The position numbers were made by a program, and so were the translations under genes. Below the pieces are notes generated by a model, which did not search any database, had not been told where the DNA came from, and saw only the letters and a list, made by a program, of their open reading frames with translations. Below are positions 10,714-17,044 of a stretch of DNA of 64,000 bases, piece after piece; position 1 is the first letter of the stretch; every line of letters starts with the position of its first letter. This stretch comes from Abditibacterium sp. (GTDB lineage Bacteria; Armatimonadota; Abditibacteriia; Abditibacteriales; Abditibacteriaceae): the NCBI GenBank assembly GCA_965199495.1, contig CBDASK010000003.1, positions 992,001-1,056,000 on the forward strand, in the 5' to 3' direction.

Positions 10714-12072
10714 TCAACCCAACGATTCGCGCCCCAACTGCGCCGCCAATCCGACGTAACTCGCCGGAGTCATCGCCAACAAGCGCGCTTTGTCGTCTTC
10801 GTCCAATTCCAAACTTTCGATGAAATCTCGAATCGTCGCTTCGTCCATCGTGGCGCCGCGCGTCAGTTCTTTCAATTTTTCATACGGATTATTGATGCCG
10901 GCTTTGCGCATTACGGTTTGAATCGGCTCGGCCAAAACTTCCCACGAATTATCTAAATCGCGTGATAACGCCGCCTCGTTGAGTTGCAATTTATTCAAAC
11001 CGCGTTTCAAAGACGAAAGCGCGACCAAACTATAACCGATGCCAACGCCCATATTGCGCAATGCGCTCGAATCGGTCAAGTCGCGTTGCAAACGCGAAAT
11101 CGGCAGTTTGCCCGCCAGATGATCCAGCATCGCGTTGCCCAAACCCAGATTCGCTTCGGCATTCTCGAAATCAATCGGATTGACTTTGTGCGGCATCGTT
11201 GAACTGCCGACTTCGCCCGCGATGACGCGTTGCTTGAAATAGCCCTGCGAAACATACGTCCAAATATCGCGCGCCAGATCAATCGCAATCGTATCAAATC
11301 TCACGAGGGTTTGAAACAGTTCGGCGATGGCGTCGTGCGATTCGATTTGCGTGGTGAGCGGATTATATGTCAAGCCCAACGAGCCGACGAAATCGCGCGC
11401 GATTTGGGGCCAATTCGCATCGGGATAAGCCGCGACGTGCGCGTTAAAATTGCCGACCGCGCCATTGATTTTGCCGAGATATTCCTGATTCCCAATCTGT
11501 TCCAACTGCCGATTGAAACGCGCCACGAAAACCGCCAACTCTTTTCCCACCGTCGTTGGCGAGGCGCTTTGTCCATGCGTGCGCGCCAGCATCGGCACAT
11601 CGGCCCATTCGTCGGCCAACTCGCTAATTTTATTAACGATGGCAAACGCGGCGGGCCGCCAGACATCAGCCACGCCGCCCTGCAACATCAAAGCGTGCGC
11701 CAGATTGTTGATGTCTTCCGACGTGCAGGCAAAGTGAATCCATTCGCGCGCATCTTCGAGCGAGGTATTTTCCAACTGTTCTTTGAGAAAATACTCGACC
11801 GCTTTCACGTCGTGATTGGTCGTCTTTTCGATGGCCTTGACGCGCGCGGCATCGTCATCGGAAAAATTAAGCGAAATCGCGCGCAGCGTTTTAATTTCAT
11901 CGAGCGAGAAATCGCGCACGCCGGGAATTTCGTCGGATTGCGAGAGCATGAGCAGCCATTCGATTTCGACGTGAACGCGAAATTTAATTAAAGCGGCTTC
12001 GGAGAAAAACGCGCGCAACGGTTCGGTTGCGGCGGCGTAACGGCCATCGAGTGGCGATAAAGCTTGAATCAT
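10714..12072 (-). CDS. purB: Adenylosuccinate lyase
   Basis: ALSPLDGRY, TNHDVKAVEY, HFACTSEDIN and GSSTMPHKVNPIDFEN signature. Confidence 0.98.
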   Translation of the reverse strand: MIQALSPLDGRYAAATEPLRAFFSEAALIKFRVHVEIEWLLMLSQSDEIPGVRDFSLDEIKTLRAISLNFSDDDAARVKAIEKTTNHDVKAVEYFLKEQLENTSLEDAREWIHFACTSEDINNLAHALMLQGGVADVWRPAAFAIVNKISELADEWADVPMLARTHGQSASPTTVGKELAVFVARFNRQLEQIGNQEYLGKINGAVGNFNAHVAAYPDANWPQIARDFVGSLGLTYNPLTTQIESHDAIAELFQTLVRFDTIAIDLARDIWTYVSQGYFKQRVIAGEVGSSTMPHKVNPIDFENAEANLGLGNAMLDHLAGKLPISRLQRDLTDSSALRNMGVGIGYSLVALSSLKRGLNKLQLNEAALSRDLDNSWEVLAEPIQTVMRKAGINNPYEKLKELTRGATMDEATIRDFIESLELDEDDKARLLAMTPASYVGLAAQLGRESLG

Positions 12073-12217
12073 CGGTGTTTAGGTTTACTCAAACCTTTAA
12101 CTCTGCGGGCTTAATTTCAGCGCGCGCACTCGATATAAAACAATCTTGTCGTAAGACAAAAATGGATTTGCGGAGAAAGCGCGCTTCAAACGGATTGGTC
12201 AAACTTAAAAAGATTTT

Positions 12218-14353
12218 ATGACCTCTTCCGATTTATCCATCTTTGGCGGCGTGGCTGCTGTTGTTGACCCCGCCGACATTTCGCCCGAAGAAACGACCGC
12301 AATATTTCCTGACTCCGTTGAACTGGCGTATCAAGCGCACGCGCCGCGTTTGCTCGAAATTTTAAGCGAGGACAAATATCGCGCGCTCACTATTTTTAGC
12401 GTCGCCGACTTGAAAGCCGTCGAAGCCAATGTCGGAGAAGATAAAAAAGGCAAGGCCACGATTCAATGTTTGGTGACGAACAAGCCGCGTCTCGCCAAAC
12501 CCGAAGAAGTCGTACGCCAACTCTGGCTGGCGCGCTTGCTCAACCATTATCACTATCCAAAAACGCGGCTTGCCATCGAATTTCCCGTCACTTTTGGCCG
12601 CGATAACACCAAGCGCGCTGACATCGTGATTTTCGATAAAGATCGGCCCACGGTTCCCTACATCATTATCGAAGTTAAAGCGGTGAAATTGAAGGACGGC
12701 AAAGACCAACTCAAAGCGTATTGCAACGGCACGGGCGCGCCACTTGGCGTGTGGTCGAACGGCGGCGAAACCATCGTTTATAATCGGCGCGGCCCCAACT
12801 TCTTTGTTGAAATCCCCGATTTTCCCGCGTCCAATCAAACCATCGAAGAGATCGTCAATGAGCCTTGGACGCTGGAGATGTTGCGCAAAAAATATCAGAC
12901 GAGGGAACGGCATCGCCCGCTTAAACAGGTCATTGAAGAGATGGAAGACGAGGTTTTGTCCAACGCCGGAGTTGACGTGTTCGAGGAAGTTTTCAAGCTG
13001 ATTTTCACCAAGCTCTACGATGAACTCTCGCATCATCAGGGCGCCTCAAAAGCTAAATTCCTGCGCTTTCGCAACCAGAATACAGAAACCGAGTTGAAGA
13101 ACAAAATCGGCGATCTGTTCGATGAAGCCAAAGAGAAATGGGAAGGCGTTTTCGCGCAGGGCGACCCGATTAAATTGTCCGGCTCGCATTTGCAGGTTTG
13201 TATCGGTGCGCTCGAAGAAGAAGTGCTGTTCAACTCGAATTTAGATGTGGTGGACGAAGCCTTTGAATATCTCATCAACAAATCGAGCAAGGGCGAAAAG
13301 GGCCAGTATTTCACGCCGCGCTGGGTGATCGATATGTGCGTGAAGATGCTCAATCCTAAAGAAACCGAGACCGTGATTGATACCGCGTGCGGCTCGGCGG
13401 GCTTTACGGTTCACTCGATTTTTCACGTTTGGCGCGAGATTTTGCGCGACGAGGGCATCGAAATGTCGCACCTTTTCACGGCGGAAAAGAAGCCCGAACG
13501 GTGCAACGAATACGTGCGCGAGAAAGTGTTCGCCATTGATTTCGATGAGAAGGCGGTGCGCGTGGCTCGTTGTTTGAACCTTATCGCGGGCGACGGGCAG
13601 ACCAACGTTTTGCACCTCAATACGCTCGACTTTCGGCGTTGGAGCGACACCATCAAAAGCTCCGACTGGCAGGACACTTACTACGAAGGTTTCAAGAAAC
13701 TGAAGAAATTGCGCGCGGGCAAACCCAAAGACGACGACAAAGACGCTTATCGCTTTTTCGGTTTCGACGTGTTGATGGCCAACCCGCCGTTTGCGGGCGA
13801 CATCAAACAAAGCGATATGTTGGCGCCCTACGACATGGCGCACAAAGCCAACGGCAAACAGGAAAACAAAGTCGGGCGAGATCTGCTGTTCATCGAACGC
13901 AACCTCGACTTTCTGCGCCCCGGCGGACGCATGGCGGTCGTCTTGCCGCAGGGCCGCTTCAACAATTCGAGCGACAAACGCTTGCGCGAATTCATCGCCG
14001 ATAAATGCCGAATTTTGGCGGTCGTTGGCATTGACGGCAACACCTTCAAACCACACACCGGCACCAAAACCAGCGTGCTGTTCGTGCAAAAGTGGAACGA
14101 CGACGAAAACCTCGGCCCGCTTTGCCTCAAGAAAGACGATTACCCGATTTTCTTTGCGACCCAACAACTGCGCTCCAAAGACAATTCGGGCGACAAACTA
14201 CTGGCGCGCGGCAAAGACGGCAAATTGATGTTCGATGATCACGGCCACTTCGTGGTGCAGCACGATTTGTTCAATCACGAAGGCGAGACGAAGGACGGAA
14301 TTTACGAAGCGTTTCATCAATTCGCCGCCAAAGAAGGCTTGTCTTTTTTTTGA
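12218..14353 (+). CDS. Fused restriction endonuclease / N6-adenine methyltransferase (type IIB/IIG-like RM subunit)
   Basis: N-terminal HsdR_N-like PD-(D/E)xK nuclease (RADIVIFD...IIEVK), GQYFTPR, SAM-binding DTACGSAGF, catalytic NPPF. No helicase HsdR gene nearby. Confidence 0.9.
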   Translation: MTSSDLSIFGGVAAVVDPADISPEETTAIFPDSVELAYQAHAPRLLEILSEDKYRALTIFSVADLKAVEANVGEDKKGKATIQCLVTNKPRLAKPEEVVRQLWLARLLNHYHYPKTRLAIEFPVTFGRDNTKRADIVIFDKDRPTVPYIIIEVKAVKLKDGKDQLKAYCNGTGAPLGVWSNGGETIVYNRRGPNFFVEIPDFPASNQTIEEIVNEPWTLEMLRKKYQTRERHRPLKQVIEEMEDEVLSNAGVDVFEEVFKLIFTKLYDELSHHQGASKAKFLRFRNQNTETELKNKIGDLFDEAKEKWEGVFAQGDPIKLSGSHLQVCIGALEEEVLFNSNLDVVDEAFEYLINKSSKGEKGQYFTPRWVIDMCVKMLNPKETETVIDTACGSAGFTVHSIFHVWREILRDEGIEMSHLFTAEKKPERCNEYVREKVFAIDFDEKAVRVARCLNLIAGDGQTNVLHLNTLDFRRWSDTIKSSDWQDTYYEGFKKLKKLRAGKPKDDDKDAYRFFGFDVLMANPPFAGDIKQSDMLAPYDMAHKANGKQENKVGRDLLFIERNLDFLRPGGRMAVVLPQGRFNNSSDKRLREFIADKCRILAVVGIDGNTFKPHTGTKTSVLFVQKWNDDENLGPLCLKKDDYPIFFATQQLRSKDNSGDKLLARGKDGKLMFDDHGHFVVQHDLFNHEGETKDGIYEAFHQFAAKEGLSFF

Positions 14354-14399
14354 ACAGCCCCTTCGATGAAGCCAATTATCAGGCTTTGTTGAAGGGGCT
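14344..14399 (+). promoter_or_regulatory. Candidate programmed -1 frameshift signal
   Basis: Slippery T_TTT_TTT (14344-14350) in frame directly before the RM TGA, a 5-nt spacer, then an 18-bp stem-loop at 14356-14399. The S ORF is in the -1 frame. Confidence 0.7.
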
Positions 14400-15810
14400 T
14401 AACGCCCAAGAGGTTAAGTTTTCAGATTTGGAAGATACGCTTCGCATTGATTCGGAATATCATTCGCCACATTTTTTAGCGTTAGATAAGAAAATTCGCA
14501 GTGGGAAATTTGATAATCTGGAAGATTTGGGGCGCTTAATTCCTGGCCCGTTTGGTTCGGCGTTTCATGTCGAAGACTTTGTTGAAGACGGAGAATTTCG
14601 CTATGTGCGCGGCAAAGATGTGAAGCCTTTCTTTGTCACCAATAACGACAACGTTTATATGCCCGCTACCGATTTCGAGCGCATGAAAGAATTTGGGCTT
14701 CAGGAAAATGATGTTCTGGTTTCCGTCGTTGGGACTTTAGGTAATGCTTCATTGGTGACAGCGGATGTGCTGCCCGCCATTTACAGCTGTAAAAGCACAG
14801 TTTTTCGTTCAGACGATGTTGATGCGCGTTATCTGGTTGCCTTTCTCAATTCGGAATTGGGCCGTCAATTATTACTTCGCAGAACTCGCGGCACCGTTCA
14901 AACAGGCTTGAACTTGCCTGACTTGAGAGCGATTGAATTGCCACGTTATTCGCCGGAGTTTGAAACCGCAATTGGCGATTCAATCGCCTTGTAAGACAAG
15001 GCGATTGAAGATTCCAAATCGCTCCACGCGCAAGCCGAGACGCTGTTACTTCGTGCGCTTGGTTTGGAGAATTGGCGTGCGCCCGTCACCAACAATTACA
15101 CGGTGCGTTCGGGTTCGGTGTGGGATGCCGCGCGCCTCGACGCCGAACATTTCCACCCGCAATTTCAGGCAATGCTCGACCATGTGAAATTGCATGCCAA
15201 GCGTTGTGAAGTTCTTTCTGAACTTTGTCTTCTTATCGACCACGGTAAACAGCCACCCTACGCGGAAGATGGGCCAGCCTTTTTGTTTTCGCAAAAATAC
15301 ATTGGCAAAACTGGCATCAATTACGATTTCCCCGACGATGAGGGCGCCACGCGCATTGACGGACAATTTGCCGCCGACAATGCCGATTATCTTTTGCGTC
15401 GCAATGACCTGGTTCATTACTCAGTTGGCGCCTATATCGGCAGAACTCAACCATTTTTGGAAGACGAGCCGTTGGCAATGCCAGGAAGTTTCATCACCTT
15501 AATTCGCGCTGACGAAAGCAAAATCCACCCAATTTATCTTGGTTGCGTCTTAAACAGCATAGTTGGCCAGATGCAAACTGATAAAATGAAAAGTGCCAGC
15601 GCGCAGCCCTACATTTATCCAAAAGACATCCGCCAATTTCTCGTGCCATTTGTCGCGCCGGAAATCGAAAGCGAAATCGTGGATTGCGTCGAACACAGCC
15701 ACGTCGCCAAACGGCTCGCCAAAGCGTTGCTCGAACGCGCCAAGCGCGCGGTCGAAGTCGCCATCGAAGCAGACGAGGCGGCGGGACTTTTGCTTTTGGA
15801 GGAAAAATAA
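14350..15810 (+). pseudogene. Specificity (HsdS-like) subunit with two TRDs, interrupted by an in-frame TAA
   Basis: The ORFs 14350-14994 and 15064-15810 are in the same frame. RIDSEY/RLDAEHF repeats, GPFGS, YLVAFLNS/YLGCVLNS, TVQTGLN/SAQPYIY. The stop at 14992-14994 lies in the central helix (SIAL*DKAIEDSKSLHAQAETLLLRALGLENW). Confidence 0.85.
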
Positions 15811-16553
15811 TGAGACTTGAAAGATTTCAAAAATCGGCGCGTATTCCGGTGCGCGTGCGCAACGGACAAATCGAATTTCTTTACGACACCGAATTTCCAC
15901 CGCTCGAAGACGGGGCGTTAGGTGAATTGGTCGTGGACATCAACACCGTCAAAGACCCGGCATGGCAAAAGTTTTTGGTGGCAAAAGAGCCGGTTCTGAC
16001 CGCAGATGCGGGAGATTTCGTCGCCTTTAAAGTAGCCACAGATAAAGGCGCAGACAAATTGAAAGAGCATTTAATTTCTTTCCGGCAAAATCTCGACTTG
16101 ATGAATGCCAAAGTTGATAATCCGCGCGACGCCCAAGGTCTGGCGACATTTGGCGATGGCTTTGGAGTTCTGGGCCAATTGACGACGCCACTAACGATCA
16201 ACTTGCGGGGAGAAAACTTGTCCAAACTTTCTGGAGGTGCCGTTGAAATTCCTGCGTTGCGCGAACTCAAGCGACCTCATCAAGCAATCTCTCTCAATCA
16301 AGCCTTGGTCATGGTGTCACGAACCTTTGAGCCAGAGCGAGAAAGCAACGTTGGTGACGCCTTCCGCGACATCTATTTGCTTACTGAAGGTCGGTGGGGT
16401 TTGCTGGATGCAATCCGAAGTGATTTTGAAGCTCAACACGAAATCGAACGCTGGGAAGCCATAGGTCTTGACCCGCAAAAAGTCCGCGAACGCATCAGCA
16501 ATAAGGGCGGGCTTCTATCCAACGAAACCACGCGCAAAAAACCGCCAATTTAA
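15810..16553 (+). CDS. Hypothetical protein translationally coupled to the S subunit
   Basis: TAATG stop/start overlap at 15808-15812 with GGAGG upstream. 247 aa, starting MRLERFQKSARIPVRVRNG. Confidence 0.7.
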   Translation: MRLERFQKSARIPVRVRNGQIEFLYDTEFPPLEDGALGELVVDINTVKDPAWQKFLVAKEPVLTADAGDFVAFKVATDKGADKLKEHLISFRQNLDLMNAKVDNPRDAQGLATFGDGFGVLGQLTTPLTINLRGENLSKLSGGAVEIPALRELKRPHQAISLNQALVMVSRTFEPERESNVGDAFRDIYLLTEGRWGLLDAIRSDFEAQHEIERWEAIGLDPQKVRERISNKGGLLSNETTRKKPPI

Positions 16554-16627
16554 TCCCAAATCGCCCGATTTTGGCGGCTGATTTCACGCTCAATTTCAAA
16601 CTTTCACGAGGGGCATCTGGATTTGGC

Positions 16628-16795
16628 TTGTCACGGCCTCCTTTCGATCTGTCGCGGCCTCTTTTCGACTCGTCATGGGCTGTTTTTTATCTATCGTGGC
16701 CTGCTTTCTATTCGTCACAGGCTCGATTGCATCTGTCGCGGCCTGCTTTCGATTGGGCGCGACCTCGACTGGATTTGCGGCGTCCCGCTCTCGCT
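16628..16795. repeat. Degenerate 21-bp tandem repeat, about 8 units
   Basis: Units such as TTGTCACGGCCTCCTTTCGAT, CTGTCGCGGCCTCTTTTCGAC and CTGTCGCGGCCTGCTTTCGAT. They translate as 7-aa periodic peptides on both strands. Confidence 0.75.
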
Positions 16796-16882
16796 TTGTG
16801 CTTGTCACTGCTGTGTTATAATGCCTGCCATTCCGGCGTCGCACCCCAATTTTCCAACCGGAATAATTAGGAGACAAAAATT

Positions 16883-17044
16883 ATGTCAGACGACGATTTG
16901 TTACAACGTTCGCGGCTCAAGCGCATTCTGGTGTTCGACGCCAATAACTCCGGTGCCTTCCCCGCGTCGGGCGCGATGCGCGATGTTTTGGCGCGCATGA
17001 GCGCGCTCGATGGTGAACTGGATGAATTGGCGTCTTCGCAATAA
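16883..17044 (+). pseudogene. Short 53-aa ORF or truncated gene with strong expression signals
   Basis: TGtTATAAT at 16814-16822 and AGGAG RBS precede MSDDDLLQRSRLKRILVFDANNSGAFPASGAMRDVLARMSALDGELDELASSQ*. Confidence 0.5.

Follow-up and report, generated by a model that had tools for sequence, protein, structure and literature searches.

A probable programmed -1 frameshift signal between the nuclease-methyltransferase and specificity parts of a Type IIB-like restriction-modification family

The RM gene of the window (the window being the whole analysed stretch of Abditibacterium sp. DNA, 64,000 nucleotides) occupies positions 12218..14353 of the + strand and encodes a 711 aa fusion of a PD-(D/E)xK-type nuclease with an N6-adenine methyltransferase. 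Pfam places HSDR_N_2 at residues 95-203 and N6_Mtase at residues 343-629, the motifs D135, E152-x-K154 and NPPF (at 522) are present, and the top PDB sequence match is RM.BsaXI (E 1e-23). Full-length RM frames of the family described below carry D...E-x-K in 133/136 cases and NPPF in 136/136. Nuclease and N6-adenine methylase share one chain, as in Type IIB enzymes, and an HsdR-type ORF with helicase motifs lies beside the genes in 0 of 176 loci (regular-expression search; flanks of 1.5-3 kb).

RM ends with TCT TTT TTT TGA, the stop TGA being at 14351-14353. The third base of the Ser codon and the following Phe-Phe codons form the slippery heptamer T_TTT_TTT (14344-14350, + strand), which is conserved across the family and here lies in a T8 run (14344-14351). 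It is followed by a 5-nt spacer (14351-14355), which begins with the frame-0 stop, and by a hairpin (14356-14399), the candidate 3' stimulator according to folding and covariation. The stem is an unbroken helix of 18 bp, three of them G-U, between arms 14356-14373 and 14382-14399, and it is closed by an 8-nt loop. Heptamer, spacer and stem were thus described correctly in the first-pass annotation of this DNA, as rereading of the sequence and refolding demonstrate. The 14330-14430 region has a folding z of -5.79, with none of 200 shuffles equally stable. In the same genome an unbroken helix of at least 12 bp occurs just 3' of only 4/1628 T6C/T7+ runs, and among these four the helix of the window has both the greatest length (18 bp) and the greatest stability. 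In the -1 frame the stem also codes for the conserved linker-helix peptide P-F-D/N...L-L-E/K-G-L. The weak SD-like GAAGG noted earlier is indeed present at 14333-14337, but it is not among the stimulatory SD motifs given in PMC4066793, and a role for it in the window copy is without support.

A search of 12000-17000 against Rfam 15 returned a single sub-threshold match, distant from the slip site, and no curated frameshift element. An intrinsic terminator is ruled out, since the T run lies 5' of the stem on the + strand and the A run lies 3' of it on the - strand, which is the wrong order on both. A Logan contig of run X1 agrees with 12028-16800 throughout (0 differences, 0 gaps), including the same T8 and the same TAA discussed below; it does not count as independent support because X1 may be the source sample. 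A related contig of run X3 spans the T run ungapped and ends 17 bases beyond it, hence we do not count it as bridging.

The S module lies in the -1 frame of the + strand, as had been proposed, and is HsdS-like in both of its halves. Its first part (14350..14994) comprises the linker, the first target-recognition domain and half of the first conserved helix. The second part (14995..15810), in the same frame, comprises the rest of the helix, the second target-recognition domain and the C-terminal helix; it matches PADLOC Specificity_I (E 5e-34) and aligns to residues 891-1151 of the fused homologue P0140. Pfam finds nothing in either half, and PADLOC and NCBIfam do match. The two parts are separated by an in-frame TAA (14992-14994) inside the first conserved helix, which the first-pass annotation overlooked. 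The residue at this position is A, S or G in 10/10 aligned homologues. The frameshift product of the window copy would end halfway through the first conserved helix, having only one recognition domain. A Type I-like S with two target-recognition domains is found at the family level, and in the window the module is present but interrupted. The recoding signal of the window is intact, and this copy of the enzyme is probably inactive because its S carries the nonsense codon. Shortened S frames also occur in 9/108 other forward loci (defined below). In L026 and L029 the S frame is 751 codons long, being fused to a downstream domain, and L129 is similar with 719.

The family was assembled as 190 loci from five sources: the best 80 of 130 GTDB matches to the window RM, 3 plasmid regions, the best 80 of 562 metagenome matches to a cyanobacterial fusion, 20 loci from 18/401 cyanobacterial genomes, and 7 loci from 301 genomes of the phylum of the window. 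The RM C-terminus is covered in 176 of them, and removal of 9 duplicates and of 2 loci without the junction leaves 165 distinct junctions, the window included. The final junction counts rely on tblastn anchoring, with 4 loci assigned by hand (the window itself, L184; L163 and L074 as forward; L127 as reversed). Since the loci share ancestry and were selected by their resemblance to two queries, the proportions of the layouts are biased and the junction counts are not numbers of independent events.

A canonical heptamer is found at the same place in 149/165 junctions. The forward layout, with the slippery heptamer and S in the -1 frame, accounts for 111/165, where the heptamer is T_TTT_TTY in 92 (T_TTT_TTT 77, T_TTT_TTC 15), G_GGA_AAR in 18 (G_GGA_AAG 17, G_GGA_AAA 1) and A_AAA_AAA in 1. 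The layout occurs in isolate genomes too, and 3 further loci of a viral collection, outside the count of 165, are also forward. In 38/165 junctions the layout is reversed: RM-S is open in frame 0, and T_TTT_TTT and the hairpin are kept. No slip site is present in 10/165, which are 3 half-S fusions, 5 loci with an own S start (L033, L078, L083, L177, L178) and 2 loci where another gene follows. The remaining 6/165 are irregular. Two of them (L046, L049) retain a bare T_TTT tetramer; one Phe codon is lost and the distance to the stem is still 6 nt, which would be consistent with single-tRNA slipping. One (L136) has G_GGG_GAG, and three (L071, L117, L124) have T5 with S in the +1 frame. L117 and L124 are sister loci in which the RM and S frames are intact and the stem is kept; they could represent a common one-base deletion or a +1/-2 variant. 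Two single loci depart in the hairpin: the heptamer of L015 is followed by a weak stem, and in L128 the stem is absent.

The same RM and S proteins in the forward layout are encoded on an E. coli chromosome (L194) and on a Klebsiella conjugative plasmid (L082), which means that the cassette moves between genera. They are found in 3/5426 complete E. coli genomes, and over 801 bases these 3 share 99.9% identity with the copy on the Klebsiella plasmid.

The heptamer is under selection. Elsewhere in the same RM genes only 6/182 Phe-Phe pairs are written as T_TTT_TTY. T is the last base of the junction Ser codon in 81/81 forward T-type loci where 15.9 would be expected, although the class is in part defined this way. 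The spacer is 5-6 nt in 87/111 forward relatives. In the 19 loci with A-type heptamers the stem is shifted so that the spacing is preserved; G_GGA_AAG, a variant that was not foreseen at first, sits two codons further on and the stem moves along with it. An SD motif of the published list lies upstream in 78/111 forward and 37/38 reversed relatives. The Lys codon is AAG in 33/34 reversed loci versus 13.9 expected, and GAG is enriched without the heptamer as well (7/11 versus 3.7).

The stem is maintained as a structure. Among 105 aligned forward junctions (stems of odd length were omitted), 12/18 stem pairs are changed on both sides. Double-change cells number 144 versus 68 in shuffles (0/500 reaching this value), and stem pairing is 84% compared to 38-61% in slid controls. 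The best-sampled stem pairs join third codon positions of the -1 frame and are therefore not forced by the protein; column pair 30-63, for instance, links Pro with Glu and is C-G in 73 and U-A in 27 loci. When the 70 nt after the slip site are ranked for stability against their own locus, the junction falls in the top 5% in 109/111 forward and 37/38 reversed loci, and in 0/10 of those without a slip site. The latter have also lost the hairpin (0/10 have one). Kinship among the sequences inflates these signal counts, and for numbers of events we rely on the tree described below. The -1 frame is open for at least 13 codons past the slip site in 106/106 loci, while the +1 frame has a stop within this distance in 83/106, and the -1 peptide encoded by the stem aligns to the in-frame linker of the fused relatives. 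Thus, the alignment of homologues that had been proposed as a check gives a conserved heptamer, a conserved -1 overlap and compensatory stem changes, and homologues that lack the heptamer also lack the stem and have an altered architecture.

The reversed layout, likewise unforeseen, is exemplified by pAQ6 of Picosynechococcus PCC 7002 (SYNPCC7002_RS15140), where a single CDS of 1179 aa is annotated. It contains T_TTT_TTT, has the hairpin 6 nt 3' of it, and its first -1 codon is a stop. The -1 frame stops at the first codon in 36/38 reversed loci, whereas codon use predicts an immediate -1 stop in 10.9 of 34. In the two exceptions, the -1 stop comes after two codons (L098), or the locus resembles an assembly or decay variant (L079). 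At the protein level, 112 of 120 long homologues listed matched at S-F-F, and in 105 of these E, K or D comes next, as would be needed for an immediate -1 stop. Neither translational coupling nor a hidden start would serve an in-frame fusion, so the retention of heptamer, hairpin and -1 stop suggests that free RM is made. We regard this as the strongest argument that the sequences offer for frameshifting.

In several lineages the hairpin is replaced by an unrelated one at equal distance. Such hairpins are found in L084-L088 and L107; in L115, L120, L122, L127 and the forward L161; and in L167, where the hairpin belongs to a palindrome that has 77 copies in that genome. A C6-G6 palindrome has 4 and 3 copies in two cyanobacterial genomes, and a GACCTG-type palindrome was not found in two genomes searched, neither of which is its host. 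The RM tree (FastTree, 156/165 rows; 9 short or broken RM frames omitted, slip-site residues excluded) requires 5 changes for the reversed layout, at least 4 of which are forced by well-supported branches. It also places 7 changes for the A-type heptamers, with at least 4 forced, and three separate origins for the 3 half-S fusions. Closely related sister pairs with different layouts (L005/L007, L114/L115) are present. The tree is rooted on distant rows and has long branches, hence we claim no direction for the changes of layout.

We suggest that the junction is very probably a site of programmed -1 ribosomal frameshifting that gives RM and RM-S. The anatomy of the signal, its conservation under selection and the occurrence of both polarities are observed directly; that ribosomes slip there at a substantial rate is what we infer. 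The cassette would consist of the heptamer, a spacer of 5-6 nt, the 3' hairpin and often an upstream SD-like motif, placed at the RM/S junction. In the forward layout, ribosomes remaining in frame would stop and release RM, and those that slip would enter S and synthesize RM-S. In the reversed layout, including the cyanobacterial copies, straight reading would give RM-S and a slip would lead to the immediate stop and thus to RM. Both polarities would therefore yield the same pair of products.

The T run, present at the site in 130/165 junctions, could alternatively cause transcriptional slippage, in which RNA polymerase adds a U and ordinary translation of the altered message gives the other product. 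Thermus dnaX uses this route according to the accessible text of PMC5009743. However, the same part of this review cites 9 A/T for efficiency, and the runs here are just T6-T8 (forward: T6 14, T7 47, T8 31; reversed: T7 38). The 18 loci with G_GGA_AAR have no homopolymer, the run holds a fixed codon phase, and the hairpin lies 3' of the run, so that it would still be untranscribed when the polymerase is there. We thus consider transcriptional slippage very unlikely.

Still less probable, in our estimate, is translational coupling, in which S would be a separate protein initiated either from TTG 14350 or from a TTG of the 3' arm, its ribosome-binding site being masked by the hairpin until RM is translated. 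The first-pass annotation had named TTG 14350 as the sole start here; it is the first possible one, but TTG TTG stands in the 3' arm too. RefSeq annotates the forward copies as two ordinary CDSs with the S start in the 3' arm, GGAGG is often found in this arm, TTG is at codon 13 in 81/106 loci, and the five own-S-start relatives do exist. Against this, a start codon directly follows the slip site in just 12/108 loci, 16/108 have no ATG, GTG or TTG within 17 codons, and an SD together with a start within 30 codons is found in just 17/111, at scattered positions. The residues encoded ahead of the TTG are conserved, and the own-start relatives have no stem. Coupling also leaves the heptamer unexplained, and the reversed loci need no S start yet keep the signal.

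Homopolymer runs are classic switches, and the three T5 loci and L079 are one base off the norm, as would be expected if replication slippage at the T run toggled the fusion by phase variation. But the run length is tied to the layout, with T7 in 38/38 reversed loci, and the reversed loci differ from the forward ones in spacer and linker sequence and not in one T. DNA slippage also requires no RNA stem, and the nearly identical E. coli and Klebsiella copies are too few for a test. Phase variation is accordingly given hardly any weight. An assembly error in a plain in-frame fusion has a negligible probability: homopolymers are error-prone, but the same layout in 111 loci, isolate genomes included, effectively excludes it, and the Logan contig of run X1, possibly the source sample, matches the window ungapped.

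Programmed frameshifting remains the preferred reading; it agrees with all regular layouts, and every comparative test proposed in the first-pass annotation turned out in its favour. Against it stand the six irregular junctions, the weak or absent stems of L015 and L128, the broken S of the window and the short S frames of 9/108 other forward loci. In addition, a -1 shift predicted for a C-protein/REase fusion was not observed when it was put to the test, according to the accessible part of PMC3850674.

The signal resembles those of dnaX and of IS3-type elements in its in-frame X_XXY_YYZ heptamer and in a 3' structure about 4-10 nt on that is under selection. E. coli dnaX (tau/gamma) likewise combines heptamer, spacer, 3' stem and often an upstream SD, and makes a short and a long product. 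The polarity of dnaX is reversed in some bacteria, as in the reversed RM-S loci (PMC5009743, accessible text). However, unlike dnaX with its A_AAA_AAG, the RM-S family makes R-M subunits, uses mainly T_TTT_TTY and has its stimulator swapped for unrelated palindromes. The -1 frameshifts of IS1/IS3 elements use the same set of motifs (U_UUU_UUC, G_GGA_AAG, G_GGA_AAA, A_AAA_AAA, U_UUY tetramers), and G_GGA_AAG is among the three most efficient in E. coli, both as given in the consulted portion of PMC4066793. In contrast to these elements, RM-S is a defence operon and not a transposase, and both of its products are probably required together.

The Type IIB-like character of the enzyme is supported by its domain content. 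BsaXI and BcgI (RM and S, 2:1) and AloI and TstI (single-chain RMS) also combine a nuclease-methylase with a TRD1-CR1-TRD2-CR2 module. The RM-S family differs in that it would make both forms from one gene. The 16 sequenced enzymes modelled in the BsaXI paper are, in its accessible text, RM+S or single-chain RMS. The best NCBIfam matches of RM and S are MAD2 and MAD5 of MADS, with scores far below the cut-offs for membership (318 versus 720 bits and 58 versus 400, respectively). The word 'frameshift' has 0 occurrences in the BsaXI paper, in the TstI paper (PMC4027205) and in the MADS preprint. An engineered M-S fusion of EcoKI (Type IMS) cut DNA in vitro only after free M was added (PMC3510504, part consulted). 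Fusion and free M correspond to the pair of products that we propose for the RM-S family; the EcoKI fusion differs in being artificial and Type I with HsdR, and in having no recoding signal.

In the literature searched, judged by search listings and the openings of abstracts, we found no description of recoding at the RM/S junction. The 'DNA methylase' rows in the consulted part of the PMC3711429 supplement belong to its table of query genes.

Last, we consider the form of the enzyme. To our knowledge, -1 frameshifting has been proven in few non-mobile bacterial genes, and the literature searched gave no instance in an R-M system. We infer that RM and RM-S pair into an equivalent of (RM)2S in which S is tethered to one RM. 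In forward, reversed, half-S and own-start loci alike, two RM can be provided for every two recognition domains; this hints at the subunit ratio as the purpose of the signal. The 2:1 need is not certain, because single-chain Type IIB enzymes function without free RM (TstI is a homotetramer; PMC4027205, accessible text). The AlphaFold model of a fused homologue (pLDDT 74, pTM 0.47) has a low-confidence linker at 665-680, followed by the stem-encoded helix, and its top two fold matches are BsaXI RM and S. On balance we lean slightly towards a wider reading, in which a cross-phylum R-M family would build an asymmetric RM + RM-S enzyme by near 1:1 frameshifting, a natural 'half-fused' state between the two-chain and the single-chain Type IIB forms. 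Its polarity would have flipped several times, the slippery motif would have been exchanged and genomic repeat palindromes recruited as stimulators, and loss of the signal would accompany another route to two RM for two recognition domains, either fusion to a half S or an S that starts on its own. Cutting could further be balanced against methylation through the shift rate.

If the frameshifting mechanism is correct, the start of S is wrongly placed in many annotated pairs of 'N-6 DNA methylase' and 'subunit S' genes, and a second product is concealed in the single-ORF fusions of cyanobacteria. Cloning of RM and S separately as annotated would then drop the linker. The family provides a natural series (forward, reversed, half-S and own start) for relating the subunit ratio to cutting and methylation, and it is also suited to the study of how recoding signals originate and are replaced.

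Several observations concern the surroundings of the genes. A lower-depth X1 contig joins the flanks of 12088-15834 with about 3450 other letters between them, which suggests that a relative carries another cassette at this place, beside a purB-like gene (named from its translation). Downstream of S, a 247-aa ORF (15810-16553) overlaps the S stop codon by one base (TAATG); it has no match in Pfam, PADLOC or NCBIfam and no homologue in the fetched loci. A gene encoding W-x-x-F-N-A-W is present in 44/176 loci (for example L033, L040, L078 and L082). In the loci inspected it directly follows S, and its product carries near the end an R-N-x-x-x-H motif, which may be HEPN-like.
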